Of a stretch of DNA of 64,000 nucleotides, positions 2,671 to 44,064 are shown piece by piece. The notes under the pieces were generated by a model that saw only the letters and a list, made by a program, of their open reading frames with translations, did not search any database and had not been told where the DNA came from. The stretch is from an uncultured Candidatus Saccharibacteria bacterium (GTDB taxonomy: Bacteria > Patescibacteriota > Minisyncoccia > Minisyncoccales > JAGMDC01). Both the position numbers and the translations under genes were made by a program. Every line of letters begins with the position of its first letter. Position 1 is the first letter of the stretch. The stretch is taken from the NCBI GenBank assembly GCA_964615205.1, contig CAZTQA010000002.1, positions 53,286 through 117,285 of the forward strand, in the 5' to 3' direction.

Positions 2671-5580
2671 TTACAAGTTAATGGTGATTGCGTTAGCTTC
2701 TGATTGAATGCTCCAATTTGATCCGCCAAACCCAGCATAACCGCTTGTTACAGTAACATCTGTATAAGCGTTTATGTACCATTTCTGGCTCAAATCAACT
2801 GTTCCCCAATCAGAATCGGTAAAGTCAACCCTTAATTCAATGGTTTTAGGAACTCCAATTTCAACAGTTAGATTGGTTCCAATACCAGAGAAAGCAATAG
2901 TTCCATCTGACTGACTAAGAGTTCTGGTAGTAGTAAGCTCTGTTCCATCTCCATCGTAAAGCTTGAACAATGTTGCGTCTGTGGTTCCAGTAATAGCAGT
3001 TGGTATTCCACTGTCAGTAGTAAAGGTTATAGCTGTAATAACAGCGTTTGCCAGATTGGCATCCATATTAGCAACATCCCATCTACCTACTACTGTATTA
3101 CTTGAAGGACTAACAGTTCCAGAAGGAGAATCTGATGCCTTGGTTATCTCTACCACTTTAGTGTCTAACTGGAATGTACCTCCGCTGTACGGACTGCTGA
3201 TAGCAAAATCAATAGCGGCACTGGCATCTGCATCTGTTCCGCTTTCAATACCAGTTAAGGTTAAGTTTGCCGTAGCTGCTACAGTTAAGTGGAAATCAGC
3301 AACATCACTAGTGCTACTAGGGTTACCCACTAAAAGAATATTTCTGTAAACGTTCTTTTCAAAACGAATATCAGTATCCCATGTATCAGAATCAAAAGTA
3401 AATACACCACCTGACTCTGAAACTGAATCAGTTAAAGGAGTGGTTCCATCATCAGCAAAAATCCTTAAAGCGCTAAGCTTACCAGTAGATGATGGCGTAA
3501 TAACTAAATCCTTTAATTTCATATCCTCTCTGGTAGTTCTAATCTTCAAAGCGCCAAAAACAACATTTGCGCTTGGAGTTAACACACCTTGATTGTAATG
3601 AGTTAAGGTTTTATCAGTGCTCGCAGCGCTGGTAAATGTTCCAGCAGCGTAAATCTTGATATTGGTACTAGCTACATCAGTAGCTGAGGTAATGGCTTCT
3701 CCAGATGACAAACCGGTTGCAGAATAACCGCTGAAAGTAATGGTTATTACATCATCATTAGCATCCAGGTTATCAGTAATACCCCTAACAGCTAATTTCT
3801 TGGTTGTTCCAGCAGGAACAGTCCAAGATAAAGAATATTCTTCTCCAGGATCAGCAGTCTCGGCATTTACAGTCAGTGTACTGGTAGAAACTGCGCTATA
3901 TCCATCACTGGTTACTTCATAAAGACCAACAGAACTTAAGTAATTAGTACCAGCAATATCAGGAGTACCAGCAAACAGAACATTGATGGTATCAAATATT
4001 ACAGCCTCTCCGGTTGCCTTTACATCAAATACAGCTAATGTTTGTGGAGATGTTGACTGAATCATAAAGGCATTTTGCCCTTGAGGATGATCAGCAGACA
4101 TTGCAACTGATATAGAACCAGTTCCAATAGTAACAGTATTAGCAGTGGTTGTTCCAGTGCTTGAAACATTTACACCAGAAGTAGCTCCCTTACCAATAAT
4201 AGCTCCGTCAGCAGCCACAGCCATTTTAATGGTGTTTCCGCTTCCGTTAACAATATCAGCTATTAATTCAAAGCTTTGGGAATAACCTTTAGTTAAGCTT
4301 ACTGGTGAAGTCAGATTAAAGGTAACTTTGTCATTACTTCCTAAGGTTCCAGCAGCTGTTACTGCATCTCCGCCGATTTTTCTAACTTTGAGATTAGAAA
4401 TATCAGAAGCAGAAATGGTTCCTGTGTTAGTGAATGTCATCTGATTAATAGTGACATCTTCATTAGAACCAGCAGAAACAGTGAATTTTTCTAACACAAT
4501 CTCTTTCTCTCCAATCTTGGCAGTATCCTTTGGAAGTGAACTGTATTCAGCTACAGTCAAAGTTCCAAGAGAACCAGCCGGCACAACTGTAAACACATTA
4601 CCTTTGACTGGAAAGTCACCAGTAAAGGTGGCTCCGCTTATTGCTGAAGCAGAATCAATACCCATTTGGACAGTACTCATTGTTGTTCCAGCAGCTGCAA
4701 TATTAACAGCAACACTTATCGTCCTGCTTCCTCCTTGAGGAATGGACAATTGAGGAACAATAACAAAAGTTGCTTGTCCGCCCACCAAATTCTTTTCAGT
4801 GGCTACCTCAATATTGTTTTCGTCAAGAAGCTTGACTTTAGCAATAGTAGTGGTATTGGTTTCAGCAGTTCCGTAGTTCTTTACAGTAAGACCGCTGATA
4901 GTGGTAGCTTCATCCTCACTGCCGTAAATAACGAATTTGGTTACTGTGTTAATAGCAGAACCTTTCATTACATTGGCAGATAAAGGTGTTTCTTTGGAAA
5001 GCACCACGCTTAATGGCTCAACTCCCTCCTCTTCCTCTTCCTCTTCTTCTTCCTCCTCTTCTTCTTCCTCCTCTTCTTCTTCCTCCTCAGCATCAGCTAA
5101 TAATTCGTTTAACTTTTCAATAGTAGTGTCACCGACATAACCGGTTCCAGAAGTTAAATTCCAAGGAGCCAATACATCTTCTTCATATAGCTCTTGGAAA
5201 TCAATAACCGCTGCTTTGGTCAAAGGACCAAAATAGTCAGTTTCGCTTCCTGGAGAACCAGCCCCGGTTTCAGCTACTTGTGTTCTAGAATCGCTATTTA
5301 AAACGATCTGTAAACATTCAACGTCATCGCCGGACATTCCTTGACTTAAGTGTCGGTCAAAAGCGGTGATGGAACAGCCAGAAACAGATGGAACAGTAGC
5401 GCCTTCCAATTCAGCTAACTGATTTTGAAGTTGGGTTAATTGAGATAATAAAGCATCAATTTGAACCTGAAGTTCAGCAGCAGTTAATGCTTGAGCTGGA
5501 GCAACGGCTACACTCATCATCATAACCGCGCAAGCCAAAGTAGTAGTACCGGCAACAATTTTTCTAATTAATTTAGACAT
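2671..5580 (-). CDS. Large S-layer-like cell-surface protein: signal peptide, coiled coil, PG-binding domain, poly-Glu linker, long Thr/Ser/Gly-rich beta domain
   Basis: signal peptide; 'DVECLQIVLN...GPLTKAAVIDFQ' PG_binding_1-like segment; run of about 22 Glu; T/S/G/V-rich remainder; rho-independent terminator immediately 3' of the gene. Confidence 0.55.
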   Translation of the reverse strand: MSKLIRKIVAGTTTLACAVMMMSVAVAPAQALTAAELQVQIDALLSQLTQLQNQLAELEGATVPSVSGCSITAFDRHLSQGMSGDDVECLQIVLNSDSRTQVAETGAGSPGSETDYFGPLTKAAVIDFQELYEEDVLAPWNLTSGTGYVGDTTIEKLNELLADAEEEEEEEEEEEEEEEEEEEEEGVEPLSVVLSKETPLSANVMKGSAINTVTKFVIYGSEDEATTISGLTVKNYGTAETNTTTIAKVKLLDENNIEVATEKNLVGGQATFVIVPQLSIPQGGSRTISVAVNIAAAGTTMSTVQMGIDSASAISGATFTGDFPVKGNVFTVVPAGSLGTLTVAEYSSLPKDTAKIGEKEIVLEKFTVSAGSNEDVTINQMTFTNTGTISASDISNLKVRKIGGDAVTAAGTLGSNDKVTFNLTSPVSLTKGYSQSFELIADIVNGSGNTIKMAVAADGAIIGKGATSGVNVSSTGTTTANTVTIGTGSISVAMSADHPQGQNAFMIQSTSPQTLAVFDVKATGEAVIFDTINVLFAGTPDIAGTNYLSSVGLYEVTSDGYSAVSTSTLTVNAETADPGEEYSLSWTVPAGTTKKLAVRGITDNLDANDDVITITFSGYSATGLSSGEAITSATDVASTNIKIYAAGTFTSAASTDKTLTHYNQGVLTPSANVVFGALKIRTTREDMKLKDLVITPSSTGKLSALRIFADDGTTPLTDSVSESGGVFTFDSDTWDTDIRFEKNVYRNILLVGNPSSTSDVADFHLTVAATANLTLTGIESGTDADASAAIDFAISSPYSGGTFQLDTKVVEITKASDSPSGTVSPSSNTVVGRWDVANMDANLANAVITAITFTTDSGIPTAITGTTDATLFKLYDGDGTELTTTRTLSQSDGTIAFSGIGTNLTVEIGVPKTIELRVDFTDSDWGTVDLSQKWYINAYTDVTVTSGYAGFGGSNWSIQSEANAITINL

Positions 5581-5805
5581 TTTTTTAATTTTTTACTGAT
5601 ATTCTTGCTTTCTCTTTTAGAAAATAGCAATTCTATCAGTAATTTTTTAACCTTTTATTTTATTACCGTTGACGACCTTTTAAGCATCTTTTAGGTATAA
5701 AGAATTCTTTGAGCTTTTAGCAAACACTTAAAAGATGTTTCTAACGGCTTTTTTTCGACCTTTAGACAACTTTCTTAAAATAGTTGTTTCAAAATAATAT
5801 TATTG

Positions 5806-6552
5806 TTAATAACCTAAAATCAAGATTTTTTCAAGGGCTTCCTGATAATTGCCTTCCTCAAACAGTTCTTTGACTTGGTCAGCTAATTCTTGCTGCATCT
5901 GGCTCAATTCCCTGCCCTCTAAATCTTTGAGTTCCCTTTCCACTAAAACCTTGTAATAATTATTGACTGAATCTTCTAATTCTTGTGTGTCAATCTTAGT
6001 AGCTAAAATTTCCTCTGCTATTTCTTTCTTCTCCTGGATGTCTTCTACTTTATTTTTAACTTCCGCGAACATATCAGAATTATTTTCAGCAAGAGCAACT
6101 TTCTTTATGGCTTCAGCTGTTTCTTTAACGCTTTTTTCCACTTCTTCCACTGCGGGAGCCAAGTTTCTGCCTTTATTTCCTTCGGCTATTTGCACTAATT
6201 CATTAAGCTTGTCCTGAGTAATCTCCATTTGAACTCTGGGCTTTTCTTCCTCTGAAGCTAAGCTTATTTTAGCTTTCTCTCCCATTCTCTTCACTGAATA
6301 AAGCATATCTCCAGGCAAAGAATCCTGACTAAAGCTAAAAGTACCCAACAAAAGGCAAAAACAAAAAGCAGTTACTAAAGCTGGTTTTAAAAAGGGCCTT
6401 ATCTCAAAAACTGAAACTAATTGGGCTATAAAAGACTGTTTTTGTTCTTGATTTTCAGATAAAATCCTGTTTTTAGCCAAAACAACCCAGTCTTCTCTGG
6501 GTTCAATATCCTGAATTTGTCTTAATTTTTGAATAAGCTCTTTTTCGGTCAT
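5806..6552 (-). CDS. Putative anti-sigma factor (single-pass membrane protein, extracytoplasmic coiled-coil domain)
   Basis: short cytoplasmic N-terminus, one TM helix, long charged coiled-coil ectodomain; lies directly downstream of the ECF sigma gene in the same orientation. Confidence 0.5.
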   Translation of the reverse strand: MTEKELIQKLRQIQDIEPREDWVVLAKNRILSENQEQKQSFIAQLVSVFEIRPFLKPALVTAFCFCLLLGTFSFSQDSLPGDMLYSVKRMGEKAKISLASEEEKPRVQMEITQDKLNELVQIAEGNKGRNLAPAVEEVEKSVKETAEAIKKVALAENNSDMFAEVKNKVEDIQEKKEIAEEILATKIDTQELEDSVNNYYKVLVERELKDLEGRELSQMQQELADQVKELFEEGNYQEALEKILILGY

Positions 6553-6612
6553 TTAAAAAAGAAAAACCGCTTCTATAATATTAAGACGGATTTAATCCCC
6601 TTTTTGTTACAC

Positions 6613-7107
6613 CTAAGCCAGTTCTTTTTTAAGGGCTTTCAATCCCCTGTGCAGCATAATCCTAATATTTCCTTCTGTTTTGTCCATAACTTCAGCTATT
6701 TCTCTAATGGGCATATCTTCAATATAATGGCAGAAAACCACATCTTGATACTCTGGCTTTATCTTAGATAAAGCTAACTTTATTTGTTCAAAATCTGATT
6801 TAGAAAAAACCTGTTCTTCTAAATTCTCCCTGTCTTCCAATTCCGGGCAATCATCAACTGAAACTGTCTTAATTTTGTTTTTTTCCCTATAATGGTCAGC
6901 TACCATATTTCTAGCTATCTGAAAAATAAAGGCCTGGGGATTTTTTATGTCTTGTTTTGAATTTAAGCTATGCCAAAAACGGGTAAAAACCTCTGAACAA
7001 AGATCTTCAGCTGTTTCTGAAGAATCCACTTTTAAAAGCACAAATCTATAGACCTTGGCAATATAACTATCATATATTTGACTGAATTTTTGGCTTATAC
7101 TCTCCAT
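6613..7107 (-). CDS. ECF-family RNA polymerase sigma-70 factor
   Basis: region 2 ('FTRFWHS...IARNMVADHYR') and region 4 HTH ('IREIAEVMDKTEGNIRIMLHRGLKALK') motifs. Confidence 0.85.
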   Translation of the reverse strand: MESISQKFSQIYDSYIAKVYRFVLLKVDSSETAEDLCSEVFTRFWHSLNSKQDIKNPQAFIFQIARNMVADHYREKNKIKTVSVDDCPELEDRENLEEQVFSKSDFEQIKLALSKIKPEYQDVVFCHYIEDMPIREIAEVMDKTEGNIRIMLHRGLKALKKELA

Positions 7108-7117
7108 AATTTGGTTT

Positions 7118-7194
7118 TGTCATATGACACTATGTCTAAACGTCATATGACAAAGGAATTATGTCATATGACATACATATTCTGTCATATGACA
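7118..7194. promoter_or_regulatory. Array of four copies of the 10-bp palindrome GTCATATGAC (three copies extend to the 12-bp palindrome TGTCATATGACA) spaced 21-23 bp apart; putative operator in the ECF sigma promoter
   Basis: palindromes read directly at 7119-7128, 7142-7151, 7163-7172 and 7184-7193; located between the stop of the HTH regulator gene (7195) and the start of the ECF sigma gene (7107). Confidence 0.6.
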
Positions 7195-7722
7195 TTACCC
7201 TAATTCGTAAAATGTATTACTAAAATCCCCTCTTAGTTTGATTAAACCTTTATTTTTCAAAAAAACAACATCCCTTTGAATAGTTCTTTTGCTTACTTTG
7301 GAAAAGTAATTCTGAATTTCCTTTAGCTGAACTCTCTTTTTCTCTTCTATAATAGCTAATATTTCCTTCTGGCGTTGAGAGATTTCTTTTGGGTTAGCTT
7401 TTTTTTCTTCAAAATAACTTTTCAATTCACTATATATTTTATCATATTCTCTCTGAAGTACCAAGAAATTGGAGGGTTTGGTTAATGACTTAGCAACAGC
7501 TGAATCAAAACATTCCTTAAGATTTTCTATATTCTTAGCTGTTTCTTTTGCCAGATAGATATCTTCAGCATTTGACCTCCTGCTACTCTGAAAAACAATA
7601 AGGTTACCCAGAATATTATTCACCTGGCCCCTTATATCCCCTCTCAAGGGTTCTTCTTTAGGAAAAACATCTGTCACCTTGTAAACAGCAAAACTTAAAT
7701 TAATAATTTGTTCTCTATTCAT
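7195..7722 (-). CDS. Transcriptional regulator with C-terminal DeoR-like winged HTH
   Basis: C-terminal 'ILAIIEEKKRVQLKEIQNYFSKVSKRTIQRDVVFLKNKGLI' matches the DeoR-type wHTH pattern; N-terminal 120 aa of unknown function. Confidence 0.5.
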   Translation of the reverse strand: MNREQIINLSFAVYKVTDVFPKEEPLRGDIRGQVNNILGNLIVFQSSRRSNAEDIYLAKETAKNIENLKECFDSAVAKSLTKPSNFLVLQREYDKIYSELKSYFEEKKANPKEISQRQKEILAIIEEKKRVQLKEIQNYFSKVSKRTIQRDVVFLKNKGLIKLRGDFSNTFYELG

Positions 7723-7795
7723 GGTTAAGTAATAAAAAAGCCGCTTCTATTTATAATACTAATAAAAACAGCTCCGTCAACCTGTGGATAATTAA

Positions 7796-7819
7796 GTAAA
7801 CTCACGATCGTGAGATTAC
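7796..7819. repeat. 24-bp near-perfect palindrome GTAAACTCACGATCGTGAGATTAC (copy 1 of 3), preceded by TGTGGATAA (7783-7791)
   Basis: read directly; abuts the stop of the ComEA/LTD gene; about 75 bp upstream of the start of the 7195..7722 regulator. Confidence 0.7.
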
Positions 7820-10800
7820 CTATCGTATTGGTTTGACAAAGTAAATAGAGTAATGACCCGGGAGATAAACGATTTTGTCGAAACCCAAAGAAATGCTCTG
7901 TCGGAAGCGCTCAAATGACTGACTAAAGATTTCTTCACCGTTAGAGTTTAAACCCATAACACCGCCGCCAGAACCAAGATAAGTATAAATATTCCCTTGG
8001 GAGTCAACAACTAAACTGTCTAAAGGATTGCTTAGCAATCTTTTCTCCCAAACAACTTTTCCGGTTGAAACGCTGACAGCATAAAGAACTCCGTAAACAG
8101 AACCAACCGGGCCCCAAACCGGATGGCGAGTGGCATAAACAACTTCTTCATCTGGGCTCAAAGCCCTAGGAAAAAGACCGTCGTAAGCAAGAGTCCAGAG
8201 TATATCCCCTTCTGAATTCAAAGCATGAAGATATTTGGAACGAATAAAGATTTTATTGTCTTGAGAAATAATAGGATAACTTAAATGTTCGGCTAATCTG
8301 TGAAGTTCTTCAAATTCTGTCTGCCATTTTTCTGTTCCGTCAGAATTAAAAGCCCAAAGCTTATTTTTATGGCTTACATAAACAGTTCCATCCGGTCCCA
8401 CAGAAGGAGAACTAATTTCATCGTCTATTTCTCTGCCAAAAGATTTTTTCCATAATTCCTGGCCTTGATTATCTAAAGCAAAAAGCACATGGTCATAGAC
8501 GTCATCCTCTTTCAAAAAAGTGCTGAAATAAACCACGCCCTCATCATCAACCGCTGGAGAAGTAGTATTAAACATATAATCAATTTCTTTTTTCCACATA
8601 AATCTGCCCGAAGAATCAACTGCGATTAATCCAGTTCCAGACATAAAATAAACTGTACCATCTGGACTGATAGCCGGAGAACTCCTAAGCATGCCCACAT
8701 CTGCTTCGTAAAACCATTCCTTATTCCCTTGAGTATCAAAAGTGTAAATTCCTGTTTTAAGCTCCACCCTTGCCGGAACATAAACCCTGTCGTTCGTAGC
8801 TACTACCAAACCAAAATAATCTCTATCCTCTTTTCTGCCAGCGAATATTCCTGAATCAATATCTTCACTATCGGGCCCTTCAAACCGGCTATAGCCGGAC
8901 CGTTGAGCGTTACCCCCAAACATTTTCCAGGGACTTTGGAAAAAATCCTCTTTATAGAAACTATTTTCTTGTTTGGGAGTCCCAAAAATTGAGTTTCCAT
9001 TAGCATCCTTACCATTAAATATTATCTGATTGTTATCCTGCCACTCATTCAAGCCAATCCTTTCCATAGAAATATAATCCGGTCCAGCTTTACCAGCCAG
9101 CCAAAGACCGTCTTGCGAACAAGTAGTAGAATCAATTAAATTATCATTCTGGTCAAAAAGCCATAGAACTTCACAACTATTATTACCCAATCCATTGCCA
9201 AAAGAACCGGTCCAGTCAGCGGAAATATCAGAAACAGCATTATCGTCTGTGCGTTCTATCAAATAAAAACCGTCTTCAGGAATAGTGGTTGTTCCTAACC
9301 CCTCAATAAAAGAAATGTCCGGCCCATTGTCTGAAGACACTAATTTCCAGCCGGAAATATCTATTTCTTTATCAGTATTGTTATAAAGCTCAATCCATTC
9401 ATCAAAACCAGATGCTTTGGTCCCCATCCAGGCAACTTCGTTTATTAAAACATCTTGCTTGTCCGCCGTAGCTTCAGCGGAGGCGGATTCTTCCTCTTCC
9501 CGATCTTCTTCATTCTCCTGATTCCCTTGGCTCTCTTCATTCTCTTGCTCTCCTGGGTTTCCTCCCCCATTTTCCTCTTCTTGGTTTTTGCTCGTCTCTA
9601 CTGGATTAGTAATATTAATTTTACTTTTAAATTCCGACAAATAATTACTTTTTCCGTTTTCTCTAACTCTAGCTATAATATCTGCCTGGCCTTGAAAATC
9701 TTGATTTTCAATTTTTAATCTAAATTTATTTTCAAACGAAGTGCCAAAGAAAACTTCTTCAATATAGTAAATGGAAGACTGCCAATTATTATCCTCGTCA
9801 CAATCAGAGTAGCAAATAGAAGGGAAAGGACTGCCGGTATCAATGGAAATCTTCACATCATAAACGACAAGATGAAGATTGGAAACAGAAAAAATAACTT
9901 CAATTTCCTTGTTTACCGGGTTTTCTTCTGGATAATCAAGTATAATCTCAGGAGAAGGAGTAGAGGAAGAACTAGAACTAGAACTAGAACTAGAACTAGA
10001 ACTAGAATCATCTTTAGGACCAACGTCATTTTCGACATAAGCGCAATCCTGGTCTATTATTTTTTGCAAGGTTATTTCACCGATTCCGCTCACCCTTATC
10101 AGTTCATAAAGAGAAGAAAAAGGTCTTCCATCTATTATCCTTTGAGCAATTACTGGTCCAACGCCTATTATTTTCTGCAAATCCTCTTTAGATGCAGTAT
10201 TAATATTTACAAGACAGATATCTGTTTCTTCTTCGTCTAATTTTTTTTCAACCTCCTCTTCTTCAATTTCTTCTTCAATTTCTTCTTCAATTTCTTTCTC
10301 TTTAATTTCCTCCTGATCCACTTGATCTTCTTGATTTTCTGGTTCTTGATCCTCTTGGTTCTCTTGATCCCCTATCTCCTCATTCTCTTGCTCTTCTTGA
10401 TTTTTTCGCCCTTCTATGTCAGAAGAAAATGGTTCTGAAACTTGAGCTCCAAAATCAGAAAATATATCAGCTATATTTTTAAAATCATCAACCGTACCCG
10501 ATATTTCATTTTCTATGCTTTTTCTAATCTTTCCAAAAAAAGAAGCCGGCTCCTCAAAGGGATAAGCCGGCACCGGCTCTGAAAAAATTACTTCCACTTT
10601 TGAAGAATCATCCCAGACAAACCCTCCGGTGTAAAGTTCATTCACCCCGCCCGTTATCTTTACAATAAATGGTGAAAGCTTAGTATTTCCTCTCTCAAGC
10701 CATTCTTCTATATCCCAAGGAGATCTTCCTAGCCACATAATACTGGAAGTTCCTTTTAACGGCTCTACTTCTTCAGGACAATAAAATTCTTCAACTATAT

Positions 10801-11326
10801 TTGATTTGTCATTGCCTAAATAACGATAATTAATAAGGTAATGAAATTTTGGCTCTTGAACATTCTTTTTATAAGAAATATATTTAAATTTTAATGGCCC
10901 GTTAGCTATTTTTAATTCATTTTGTGAAAGCCAATCTTTAACTATCTGAACAGCTTTCTCAACTGTCTCTTTTTCTATTTTATCTATAATAGAAGAAATG
11001 TCGTGTTTTAAGATTAAAGAGGCCCCAACTTTAATGATTTTTTCAAGGTATTCTTTAGGAATTTCTACAAAACAATAAGACAGTTCTTTTTTCTGGATTC
11101 CGCTTCTGACCAAAAATAAAGCCGCCTGTTTTTCTGGAGAGGAAAAATCCGGAGAGGTAGTCATATTTATCCATTCATCTACTAATTTATGCTGGCTAGA
11201 ATTCAAAATATTGATAGCCTTTGTTTTTTCTAATTCGTATTCTTCTGAATAACATAAATTTGGCACAACTAAAAAACCTATTACGCAAAATAACATAAAA
11301 AAGCTTAAAAATTTTCTTTTCGTCAT
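7820..11326 (-). CDS. Giant secreted multidomain protein: ComEA-type helix-hairpin-helix DNA-binding module, lamin-tail domain (LTD), C-terminal PQQ-like beta-propeller, acidic and poly-Ser linkers
   Basis: signal peptide; 'NINTASKEDLQKIIGVGPVIAQRIIDGRPFSSLYELIRVSGIGEITLQKI' matches the ComEA HhH pattern; 'VLINEVAWMGTKASGFDEWIELYNNTDKEIDISGWKL' matches the LTD pattern; repeated 'DGTVYF/GTVYV...W' propeller blades; poly-Ser from (AGAACT)n. Confidence 0.65.
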   Translation of the reverse strand: MTKRKFLSFFMLFCVIGFLVVPNLCYSEEYELEKTKAINILNSSQHKLVDEWINMTTSPDFSSPEKQAALFLVRSGIQKKELSYCFVEIPKEYLEKIIKVGASLILKHDISSIIDKIEKETVEKAVQIVKDWLSQNELKIANGPLKFKYISYKKNVQEPKFHYLINYRYLGNDKSNIVEEFYCPEEVEPLKGTSSIMWLGRSPWDIEEWLERGNTKLSPFIVKITGGVNELYTGGFVWDDSSKVEVIFSEPVPAYPFEEPASFFGKIRKSIENEISGTVDDFKNIADIFSDFGAQVSEPFSSDIEGRKNQEEQENEEIGDQENQEDQEPENQEDQVDQEEIKEKEIEEEIEEEIEEEEVEKKLDEEETDICLVNINTASKEDLQKIIGVGPVIAQRIIDGRPFSSLYELIRVSGIGEITLQKIIDQDCAYVENDVGPKDDSSSSSSSSSSSSSSSTPSPEIILDYPEENPVNKEIEVIFSVSNLHLVVYDVKISIDTGSPFPSICYSDCDEDNNWQSSIYYIEEVFFGTSFENKFRLKIENQDFQGQADIIARVRENGKSNYLSEFKSKINITNPVETSKNQEEENGGGNPGEQENEESQGNQENEEDREEEESASAEATADKQDVLINEVAWMGTKASGFDEWIELYNNTDKEIDISGWKLVSSDNGPDISFIEGLGTTTIPEDGFYLIERTDDNAVSDISADWTGSFGNGLGNNSCEVLWLFDQNDNLIDSTTCSQDGLWLAGKAGPDYISMERIGLNEWQDNNQIIFNGKDANGNSIFGTPKQENSFYKEDFFQSPWKMFGGNAQRSGYSRFEGPDSEDIDSGIFAGRKEDRDYFGLVVATNDRVYVPARVELKTGIYTFDTQGNKEWFYEADVGMLRSSPAISPDGTVYFMSGTGLIAVDSSGRFMWKKEIDYMFNTTSPAVDDEGVVYFSTFLKEDDVYDHVLFALDNQGQELWKKSFGREIDDEISSPSVGPDGTVYVSHKNKLWAFNSDGTEKWQTEFEELHRLAEHLSYPIISQDNKIFIRSKYLHALNSEGDILWTLAYDGLFPRALSPDEEVVYATRHPVWGPVGSVYGVLYAVSVSTGKVVWEKRLLSNPLDSLVVDSQGNIYTYLGSGGGVMGLNSNGEEIFSQSFERFRQSISLGFDKIVYLPGHYSIYFVKPIR
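9968..10003. repeat. Hexanucleotide microsatellite (AGAACT)6 encoding the poly-Ser tract inside the 7820..11326 CDS
   Basis: six perfect tandem units read directly. Confidence 0.8.
10259..10294. repeat. 12-bp tandem repeat (TTCTTCAATTTC)x3 encoding (EEIE)n inside the 7820..11326 CDS
   Basis: three perfect units read directly. Confidence 0.8.
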
Positions 11327-11933: not shown

Positions 11934-11989
11934 TATTTAATTTTACAACCACCCTCTAACTTTTCAACCCTTCCCCTGTGGATAACTAA

Positions 11990-12013
11990 GTAATCTCACG
12001 ATCGTGAGATTAC
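11990..12013. repeat. 24-bp perfect palindrome GTAATCTCACGATCGTGAGATTAC (copy 2), preceded by TGTGGATAA (11977-11985)
   Basis: read directly; 3 nt from the stop of the PaaX-like gene; about 57 bp upstream of the start of the 11331..11933 gene. Confidence 0.7.
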
Positions 12014-12016
12014 TTT

Positions 12017-12565
12017 TTATAGTAATTTAAAAATCTTTTCCAAATGTAATTCATTATCTATAAAATCCAATGTACCGTAGCGAACATATTTTCTTAAGTC
12101 AAAAAACTCAATAATAAAATCTAATTCATCTTCGCATTTATAGGGAAAAACAAAGACGCTTTTTTGCAGTTCGTAAAAACCTAATTTTTTAAGCTTATCC
12201 CTCAAAGCGTCTCTCCCTCTTCTTAATTTCTCTGGAATATCAAATATAACTATTCTCCATTTACCGTCCCAATTATCTCTTCTAATTTTCATCTTTTCAA
12301 AATGAAAATTCAAAGCTTTCAATTTACCTTTCTTTGTCAAAACCAAAGTACTACTCTTATCGGAATTCTCTTTAAAATCAACTAATTTTGATCCATAGAG
12401 TTTTCTTATTTCTTCGTTGAGTTTTCTTTGATTGATTAGTTTCCATTCTCTAGCTGTTTCCTTTAATATCTTAATCTGCCCTCTGGACGTATAGGTAAAA
12501 TCTAAAGCCAAACCACTTAATAAAAGAATTATGATCTTTTGTTTATTGGAAGATAACTCAGACAT
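12017..12565 (-). CDS. Minimal PaaX-family-like transcriptional regulator (N-terminal wHTH plus C-terminal Cas2-like ferredoxin-fold domain)
   Basis: N-terminal 'IIILLLSGLA...LTKKGKL' winged-helix pattern; C-terminal 'RIVIFDIPEKLRRGRDALRDKLKKLGFYELQKSVFVFP' matches the PaaX_C/Cas2-like fold signature; flanked on both sides by the 24-bp palindrome. Confidence 0.5.
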   Translation of the reverse strand: MSELSSNKQKIIILLLSGLALDFTYTSRGQIKILKETAREWKLINQRKLNEEIRKLYGSKLVDFKENSDKSSTLVLTKKGKLKALNFHFEKMKIRRDNWDGKWRIVIFDIPEKLRRGRDALRDKLKKLGFYELQKSVFVFPYKCEDELDFIIEFFDLRKYVRYGTLDFIDNELHLEKIFKLL

Positions 12566-26676: not shown

Positions 26677-26710
26677 CCCTATTAAAAAAATTAGTTATCC
26701 ACAGAGAAAA

Positions 26711-44028: not shown

Positions 44029-44064
44029 CAGCTCTGCTGTGGATAATTTTATCTAAAAAAATAC

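Follow-up and report, generated by a model that had tools for sequence, protein, structure and literature searches.

Regulators that occupy sets of phased sites, and sigma factors placed under the control of another regulator, are both familiar from well-studied bacteria. BlaI, MecI and CopY use TACA/TGTA dyad operators, and PhoB/OmpR at pho boxes, Streptomyces BldC and AspA on the pNOB8 centromere form head-to-tail multimers on phased repeats. Among extracytoplasmic function (ECF) sigma factors, HrpL and Streptomyces coelicolor SigE are controlled by separate transcriptional regulators, HrpRS and CseBC, respectively. By analogy, these phased multi-site operators and externally controlled ECF sigma factors are precedents for the logic of the locus described here, from an uncultured Candidatus Saccharibacteria bacterium (a stretch of 64,000 nucleotides of contig CAZTQA010000002.1, hereafter the window), in which an array of short sites fills the spacer between the gene of a winged helix-turn-helix (wHTH) regulator and an ECF sigma gene. 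We know of no case in which PhoB, BldC or AspA is encoded beside its own array with that array starting at the stop codon. To our knowledge, the bacteria of the Candidate Phyla Radiation (CPR, or Patescibacteria) have very few transcription factors, and no regulatory circuit has been dissected in them.

The spacer measures 87 bp (7108-7194) between the stop of the regulator open reading frame (ORF; 7195-7722, minus strand) and the start of the ECF sigma gene (6613-7107, minus strand), and contains four exact copies of the palindrome GTCATATGAC, packed into 77 bp at 7119-7128, 7142-7151, 7163-7172 and 7184-7193, with start-to-start steps of 23, 21 and 21 bp. Motif counting in this genome refers to the 64-kb window, which holds no fifth exact copy; with at most one mismatch there were 5 matches against 0.94 expected, a number that 0 of 100 shuffles reached, and a density scan for ATGACA/TGTCAT and GACA/TGTC returned the spacer as the sole cluster. 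Along the gene strand, site 1 (7183-7194) is the 12-bp palindrome TGTCATATGACA immediately past the TAA stop codon of the regulator, site 2 (7162-7173) is again TGTCATATGACA, site 3 (7141-7152) reads CGTCATATGACA on the plus strand and TGTCATATGACG on the gene strand and is palindromic only over its inner 10 bp, and site 4 (7118-7129), also TGTCATATGACA, ends 10 nt ahead of the sigma ATG. Four perfect 10-bp palindromes in this gap, three of them extending to 12 bp, had been noticed in a first-pass annotation of the window and were confirmed by exact matching, by their positions and by the shuffles. Its placing of the centres, 23, 21 and 21 bp apart, on the same helical face is approximately right, as these distances correspond to 2.2, 2.0 and 2.0 helical turns.

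The order of regulator, spacer, ECF sigma gene and DUF5667 anti-sigma gene is kept in about 35 related loci (denoted by L and a number); wherever a locus offers enough sequence, an ECF sigma gene comes after the regulator gene, and usually a DUF5667 gene comes next. Homologues of the regulator were found only in Patescibacteria-type metagenome-assembled genomes (Parcubacteria/Paceibacterota, Nealsonbacteria, Minisyncoccales and Saccharibacteria), and the gene-array-gene order persists at 26-55% protein identity. A profile search of 1.84 billion cluster representatives gave 3221 matches at E ≤ 1e-3 and 906 at E ≤ 1e-10, the latter being 50%-identity protein clusters; among the best 150 matches, almost all proteins have 170-280 aa and most are aligned over their full length. 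The spacers of the near-identical strains L052-L056 are identical to that of the window and hence uninformative.

Nearly all spacers are filled by 3-15 short repeats, which are lineage-specific around a GACA-like core (TAYGACA, TAGGACA, CTGGACA, GTGGCCA or TGTSACA) and mostly arranged as direct repeats with a spacing of 9-12 bp. The array always adjoins the regulator gene and often begins at its stop codon, and its copies are homogenised inside a genome, divergent between genomes and variable in number among close relatives. Thus the array consists of four TGATACGACA and one TGTCATGACA in L001, of five, six and seven GGGTATGACAA in L004, L058 and L057, respectively, of eight ATAGGACA in L022, of five or six direct GATAGGACA with two or three inverted TGTCCTA in L020/21, of about 13-15 copies of TTCTGGACA/ATGTGGACA in L013-L018, of 8-12 copies of AATGTGGACA/AATCCGGCCA in L028-L040, of ATGTCACA/TGTGACA in L011, L024 and L026, and of three direct GGTATGACA with five inverted TGTCATACC in L062. 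In a shuffle test on exact 6-mers, at most 2 of 500 shuffles equalled the spacer for 18 of the 32 non-redundant spacers, and the remaining arrays have degenerate copies.

Full palindromes are peculiar to the window genome, where each consists of the GACA-like core TATGACA and its own mirror image. Exact GTCATATGAC occurs in the orthologous spacers as one copy only, right after the stop codon in L019; this stop-proximal position is taken by TGTCATATGACA in L019, TGTCATGACA in L001 and TGTTATGACA in L006. In the comparison of orthologous promoters that the first-pass annotation had called for, the literal motif is therefore absent, this copy apart, and the element that is conserved is an array of GACA-like cores. 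The condition by which that annotation would have been refuted, a motif missing from such promoters, thus holds for the literal sequence but not for the element. As most such arrays are direct repeats, the model of a dimer on a palindrome does not generalise, and from the proposed cooperative operator for a dimeric regulator it is the cooperative phased array that survives.

Some loci depart from this arrangement in detail. In L004 (4551-4582), L057 and L058 the regulator ORF extends at its 3' end into the array, so that repeats GGGTATGACAAGGGTATGACA encode a C-terminal tail GYDKGMT. In L019, an insertion of about 200 bp with four GC-rich hairpins (3080-3290), similar to a miniature inverted-repeat transposable element, parts the stop-proximal TGTCATATGACA from the TACGACA copies. 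A sister group (L041-L051) encodes longer proteins (273-338 aa) with an N-terminal bundle, a long linker and a C-terminal HTH ahead of the same kind of sigma gene, and its spacers have at most two or three repeats, such as GTAGGC in L050.

The distances within the arrays follow the helical repeat of DNA. Pooling of 814 same-strand site pairs, taken from 26 arrays, gave a vector strength of the distances that peaks sharply at 10.5 bp (0.675), against 0.09-0.2 at periods of 8-9 or 12-13 bp. Neighbouring sites are 9 and 12 bp apart in turn, which places every second site 21 bp off, an arrangement into which the 21, 21 and 23 bp of the window fit. A period of 10.5 bp marks out sites that share one face of B-DNA. 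As is expected of an operator array, the sites are far above chance, confined to the regulatory region and helically phased.

The 175-aa product of the adjacent gene (7195-7722, minus strand) is the candidate reader of the array. In an AlphaFold model (m7f86f9653c46, pLDDT 81) it is predicted to comprise a four-helix bundle (residues 3-107), a short linker and a wHTH (residues 111-174) with the recognition helix at 145-157 (SKRTIQRDV). The protein had been called a DeoR-type HTH regulator, and it does match HTH_DeoR (PF08220) with 31.4 bits (cut-off 21) over residues 117-162, at its C-terminal end, where HTH_11 also matches. DeoR-family regulators have an N-terminal HTH, a C-terminal sugar-phosphate-binding domain and about 250 aa. 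Equivalog models of that family (AgaR, GlpR and others) gave only 15-20 bits against cut-offs of 260-400 and aligned over the HTH only, and no DeoR-type sugar-phosphate-binding/oligomerisation domain was found with Pfam or NCBIfam. With its HTH C-terminal, no such effector domain found and the rest of the protein modelled as a bAvd-like four-helix bundle, membership of the DeoR family was ruled out and the earlier label withdrawn.

For residues 3-107, the top Foldseek matches were chains A-E of 2gsc and 2rld_E, with target-normalised template modelling (TM) scores of 0.77-0.80 and a root-mean-square deviation of 1.7-2.0 Å over 103-104 columns, so that the modelled domain superposes on the four-helix bundle characteristic of the bAvd/23S rRNA IVS family. 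The 2gsc structure contains five identical chains, and bAvd is a pentameric barrel (PMC6182149). At the sequence level, bAvd (PF22296) matches 5 and 23S_rRNA_IVP (PF05635) 4 of 22 members of the regulator family at E up to 1, all below threshold (the best bAvd match, in L013, has 22.3 bits and E = 1.9e-4, the cut-off being 40), and the window protein gave no PF22296 or PF05635 match at E up to 1. The structural neighbours of the modelled wHTH are MecI and BlaI (25-28% identity over about 60 residues), ArsR-type proteins and AspA, and Penicillinase_R matches 10 of the 22 members (best E = 6.9e-5). A sequence search against solved structures returned marginal wHTH matches only (DsvD, BlaI and MotA; E ≥ 0.002) and left the N-terminal domain without a significant match. 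The two domains are joined by about 10 residues in the window protein and by about 60 charged residues in clade C. The regulators thus belong to a large, uncharacterised family of Patescibacteria in which a bAvd-like four-helix bundle precedes a linker of variable length and a C-terminal wHTH.

Compared with the systems named above, the locus shares single traits with each. Its wHTH resembles that of MecI and BlaI, and its putative core is, like theirs, a short xACA element with a dyad possible; BlaI and MecI, however, carry the wHTH at the N-terminus, ahead of a helical dimerisation/cleavage domain, and their operators are one or two dyads, whereas here the wHTH stands C-terminal behind a four-helix bundle and the arrays have 4-15 units, mostly direct. 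With PhoB, BldC and AspA the locus has in common short repeats about one turn apart, a variable number of units and, putatively, cooperative occupancy, and AspA is among the wHTH fold matches of the window protein, but the folds and oligomerisation domains are unrelated, being a receiver in PhoB and MerR-like in BldC. The N-terminal 105 residues are predicted to form the same four-helix bundle as bAvd/23S-rRNA-IVS proteins (PF22296, PF05635; 2gsc, 2rld), whose known members are stand-alone proteins, either associated with the reverse transcriptases of diversity-generating retroelements or of unknown role, none of them known to be wHTH-fused or sigma-linked. Like HrpL and SigE, the window sigma gene lacks an ECF promoter of its own and lies behind the putative sites of another regulator, and the ECF promoter drives downstream targets. 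For HrpL and SigE, control is exerted at one promoter by enhancer-binding proteins or two-component systems, whereas here a four-helix bundle-wHTH protein would act in cis through a multi-site array, and the anti-sigma gene itself appears to be an ECF target.

The repeat motif and the recognition helix change together. At the position of Q149 of the window protein, clade A (motif TA[TC]GACA) has Q, three clades whose motif is GGACA or GGCCA have R, and the clade built on TGT[GC]ACA, a motif that contains TGACA, has I or L; overall, Q, S, I or L accompanies [TC]GACA and R accompanies GGACA/GGCCA, in a covariation that follows the clades and is therefore confounded by phylogeny. Four further non-R proteins were picked by the helix alone, namely P0017, P0022 and P0024 (Q) and P0065 (S), and their loci (L059-L062) all have Y-GACA arrays, which are, in the same order, GCGACA/ACGACA, TATGACA/TGCGACA, T[AG]TGACA and GGTATGACA. 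This covariation is suggestive, not conclusive, evidence that the adjacent regulator is the reader. From the linkage of gene and array, the covariation of motif and helix, and the exclusion of the sigma factor (discussed below), we infer that the array is probably a docking platform for the adjacent regulator (7195-7722). The adjacent HTH protein had been the first-pass candidate as well, and the choice is supported by the gene-array-gene order conserved in about 35 loci, by the 10.5-bp phasing and by the helix covariation.

Several observations weigh against this assignment. In L023 the key position is L, yet the motif is TGGACA, and the spacer of L036 is exceptional in having a different, GC-rich inverted repeat. 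Sigma region 4 also shows clade-specific changes, and shared ancestry could produce part of the motif/helix covariation. The recognition helix is invariant within clade A while the motif flanks differ, so that the helix does not explain all the variation. Finally, direct repeats in the relatives and palindromes in the window require a binder that tolerates both orientations.

Another trans-acting protein might bind the array instead, either an OmpR/PhoB-type regulator, DnaA or region 4 of the housekeeping sigma factor, for which the repeats would be -35-like decoys or weak promoters. Each of these has some resemblance in its favour: TGTCATA, the reverse complement of the core, and the period of 11 bp of the direct repeats in L001 and L004 are reminiscent of the pho boxes of E. 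coli, TTGTCCACA-like copies occur in clades C and D and AATGTGGACAA has the reverse complement TTGTCCACATT, one base off the canonical DnaA box, and ATGACA, TGGACA and GTGACA are one-mismatch forms of TTGACA, with promoter-like matches of 9-10/12 in several spacers. The array motif, however, shifts with the local recognition helix across lineages, and such variation of the sites would be unexpected for DnaA, PhoB or sigma-70 region 4, which are highly conserved, so we consider binding by another protein unlikely. For DnaA in particular, the canonical box TTATCCACA is present separately, upstream of the regulator gene in this clade, and the array motif is accordingly not the DnaA box of this organism. 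A PhoB-type reader finds no counterpart among 10 size-matched window ORFs, none of which is a response regulator, a weak argument as the window covers part of the genome, and for sigma region 4 the number of promoter-like matches in the window spacer is zero. A cluster of DnaA boxes at an oriC was ruled out separately: the array motif agrees with the box in 5 of 9 positions, the GC skew is negative throughout the window, every ORF of 150 aa or more in 1-49357, leaving aside those nested in a longer one, is on the minus strand, and TTATCCACA lies apart at 7783-7791.

An element acting at the RNA level, such as an intercistronic attenuator or processing structure in which the self-complementary copies of a regulator-sigma co-transcript pair (1 with 4 and 2 with 3, or in alternative ways), appears very improbable. 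The window spacer does fold strongly as RNA (-40.2 kcal/mol, z = -7.2, with nested 12-bp helices), and the spacers of L024 and L034 also fold better than shuffles (z = -3.2 and -2.8, respectively). Yet four palindromes fold automatically, which accounts for the strong folding in the window, and direct-repeat orthologues fold no better than shuffles (z = -0.8 in L001, +1.7 in L004, +0.6 in L022 and -0.6 in L013). Moreover, the conserved 10.5-bp phase is a property of B-DNA, and an Rfam search of the spacer gave no family match; a conserved RNA structure was ruled out on the near-zero z values of the direct-repeat orthologues and this Rfam result.

It is equally improbable that the array is a neutral or contingency tandem repeat produced by slippage and without a specific reader. 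Slippage would account for the homogenised copies of each genome, for their numbers in close relatives (5, 6 and 7 in L004, L058 and L057, and 13-15 in L013-L018) and for the regulator ORF reading into the repeats in L004, L057 and L058. It would not account for arrays at the same position down to 26% protein identity with the GACA-like core kept, for a 10.5-bp phase that is kept even with alternating units of 9 and 12 bp, for the changes of orientation in the window, L020/21 and L062, which are beyond slippage, or for the extra copies at promoter and intragenic positions described below.

The sigma factor has a promoter of another kind. The window sigma has the composition of an ECF module, with sigma-70 regions 2 and 4 only (about 160-200 aa): the matches to Sigma70_r2 and Sigma70_r4_2 exceed the respective cut-offs, as does that to TIGR02937 (94 bits; cut-off 42.9). 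Directly past its stop lies an ECF-type promoter, TGTAAC-N17-CGTC (6585-6611, minus strand), followed by the gene of a DUF5667 membrane protein (5806-6552, minus strand), the presumed anti-sigma factor by domain match and by synteny kept in relatives. The promoter has the form usual for ECF sigma factors, an AAC-containing -35 and a CGT-containing -10 element about 16-17 nt apart. In a regex scan, 27 of 29 loci had GTAA[CT]-N15-18-CGTC past the sigma stop and ahead of the anti-sigma gene, and the ECF promoter was recorded in the window, L001, L010, L011, L013-L018, L028-L039 and L060-L062; its fuller consensus, GTGTAA[CT]AAAA-N11/12-CGTC, does not differ between clades, and in several loci a terminator-like hairpin separates the promoter from the sigma stop. 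The pattern has no match in any regulator-sigma spacer, and the ECF promoter ahead of the sigma gene itself that would mark positive autoregulation was not found. Read from sequence, the anti-sigma gene and not the sigma gene is the ECF target, and the sigma factor is not classically autoregulated. As this promoter is separate from the array and invariant among clades, the specificity of the sigma factor differs from the array motif. Although ECF sigma genes mostly lie behind a promoter of their own and TGTC resembles the -10 element CGTC, it is extremely unlikely that the array represents autoregulated promoters of the sigma factor, given the position of the real ECF promoter in 27 of 29 loci, its absence from the spacers and the makeup of the array from 4-15 identical units without separate -35 and -10 parts.

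The anti-sigma gene is thus served by a conserved ECF-type promoter of its own, past the sigma stop, and the sigma and anti-sigma genes are not simply one operon under the array, as the first-pass view had it. Its location of the array in a promoter was likewise corrected. Across the whole spacer (7108-7194, minus strand) no sigma-70-like promoter, ECF-type promoter or terminator was predicted: a sigma-70 promoter scan found none at 9/12 or more matches, a manual check gave poor candidates only, such as ATGACA-19-CATAAT, and terminator prediction found none between the regulator and sigma genes. A strong sigma-70-type promoter, TTGACG-16-TATTAT (7753-7780, minus strand), precedes the regulator gene, from which read-through to the sigma gene is probable; with this promoter upstream and none in the spacer, the array is probably intercistronic. 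Sigma-70-type promoters were found ahead of the regulator gene in 31 of 37 loci (9-11/12 matches, mostly 10-11), and the spacers of relatives have weak repeat-derived matches only (9-10/12 in several); all these calls are matches to a consensus that may not be that of the hosts, whose promoters are uncharacterised.

In the mechanism proposed here, each wHTH would recognise a short GACA-like core, TATGACA in the window genome, which every palindromic site offers on both strands. With the sites on one helical face, an oligomer held together by the four-helix bundles would cover the whole spacer cooperatively, from the regulator stop codon to 10 nt before the sigma start, and this occupancy would set the amount of the ECF sigma factor. 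A regulator-sigma operon with an intercistronic array would be the simplest reading. The most likely effect would be repression, either by blocking read-through from the sigma-70-type promoter of the regulator or by occluding weak internal promoters in which the repeats themselves would serve as -35-like hexamers; provided that the array serves the adjacent regulator, we lean somewhat towards repression. The sigma factor would then act at the invariant TGTAAC-N17-CGTC and drive the anti-sigma gene and probably the downstream surface-protein genes.

Sites outside the spacers bear on the sign of this control. In L011 (2455-2490; Saccharibacteria) the array motif ATGTCACAT lies inside the spacer of the TTGACA-18-TAAAAT promoter of the regulator itself, which suggests autoregulation in that clade; the window has no such site upstream of its regulator gene. 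In L013-L018, three phased copies of CTGGACAA, 21 and 22 bp apart, are located inside the sigma gene, in the linker between sigma-2 and sigma-4 (3602-3661 in L013, and at the same position in L015, L016 and L018), and are followed by an inverted TGTCCAG in L013, L015 and L018 but not in L016. These copies fall in two different reading frames and are kept while nearby synonymous sites vary, which suggests that they are operator sites acting by looping or as a roadblock. The promoter site of L011 and the intragenic sites of L013-L018 fit a repressor. In L004, L057 and L058, the array is located just upstream of a TATAAT box, a position that would also suit an activator.

A further, tentative possibility, which we think improbable as it stands, is that the bundle assembles a pentameric or higher barrel whose tethered wHTHs clamp the phased array, perhaps wrapping or looping the DNA; such looping or wrapping would include the intragenic sites in the sigma genes of some lineages. 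A bundle-mediated oligomer with tethered wHTHs would explain why the number, spacing and orientation of the sites are free at a fixed phase: with a barrel, site number and orientation would be free to evolve because the tether, and not a fixed dimer interface, would set the geometry. The regulator may in that case represent a previously unrecognised class of multivalent transcription regulator.

In the literature searched, the combination of a bAvd-like bundle with a C-terminal wHTH, the linkage in cis to a fast-evolving array and the ECF wiring are not described; the search covered DUF5667, ECF sigma and anti-sigma factors of CPR bacteria and Saccharibacteria, and the CPR content of the 2021 ECF reclassification paper, and gave no description of the module. 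The module recurs in hundreds of 50%-identity protein clusters. It provides a candidate specificity code, in which one residue of the helix tracks one base of the site, and an ECF promoter consensus that could be used to predict the sigma regulon in any CPR genome. If the bundle oligomerises as in bAvd, it would be a new way to build a multivalent DNA binder, and if it does form a clamping barrel, the module would be among the most widespread dedicated regulatory modules of CPR bacteria, gating an ECF sigma factor for giant surface proteins.

The module is flanked on either side by genes of giant secreted proteins (2671-5580 and 7820-11326, minus strand). One of the two has a run of 26 Glu residues and a peptidoglycan-binding-like domain, and the other combines lamin-tail, HhH and PQQ-propeller domains with a run of 17 Ser residues; comparable giant genes flank the module in orthologous loci. 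The 969-aa surface protein encoded at 2671-5580 comes after the DUF5667 gene and is tentatively preceded by a weaker ECF-like promoter, TGAAAC-N17-TGTC (5765-5791, minus strand), which fits only a loose pattern expected nine times by chance in the window. The giant surface-protein genes may belong to the regulon of the sigma factor. A few kb upstream, a 182-aa protein (12017-12565, minus strand) contains a PaaX central Cas2-like domain (PF20803, E = 2e-23).

The perfect DnaA-box 9-mer TTATCCACA occurs in four copies in the window against 0.5 expected, all of them intergenic (7783-7791, 11977-11985 and 44038-44046 on the minus strand and 26695-26703 on the plus strand). Of these, the one at 7783 lies directly against the -35 element of the regulator promoter. 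L001 and L004 also have the arrangement TTATCCACAG(G)TTGAC ahead of the regulator gene, and in L003, L006 and L058 the 9-mer is likewise found upstream of that gene. At 7792-7816 and 11986-12010 (minus strand), after two different genes, there is a near-identical 34-bp intergenic element, ATCTCACGATCGTGAG(T/A)TTACTTA(A/G)TTATCCACA, which combines a terminator-like hairpin with the box and is possibly a short repeat of intergenic DNA. The upstream regions of the regulator and anti-sigma genes (7741-7760 and 6567-6583, minus strand) have TATTATA(AAT)AGAAGCGGYTTTTT in common and hold two of only four AGAAGCGG copies in the window; this common sequence may mark a shared transcript start or leader.

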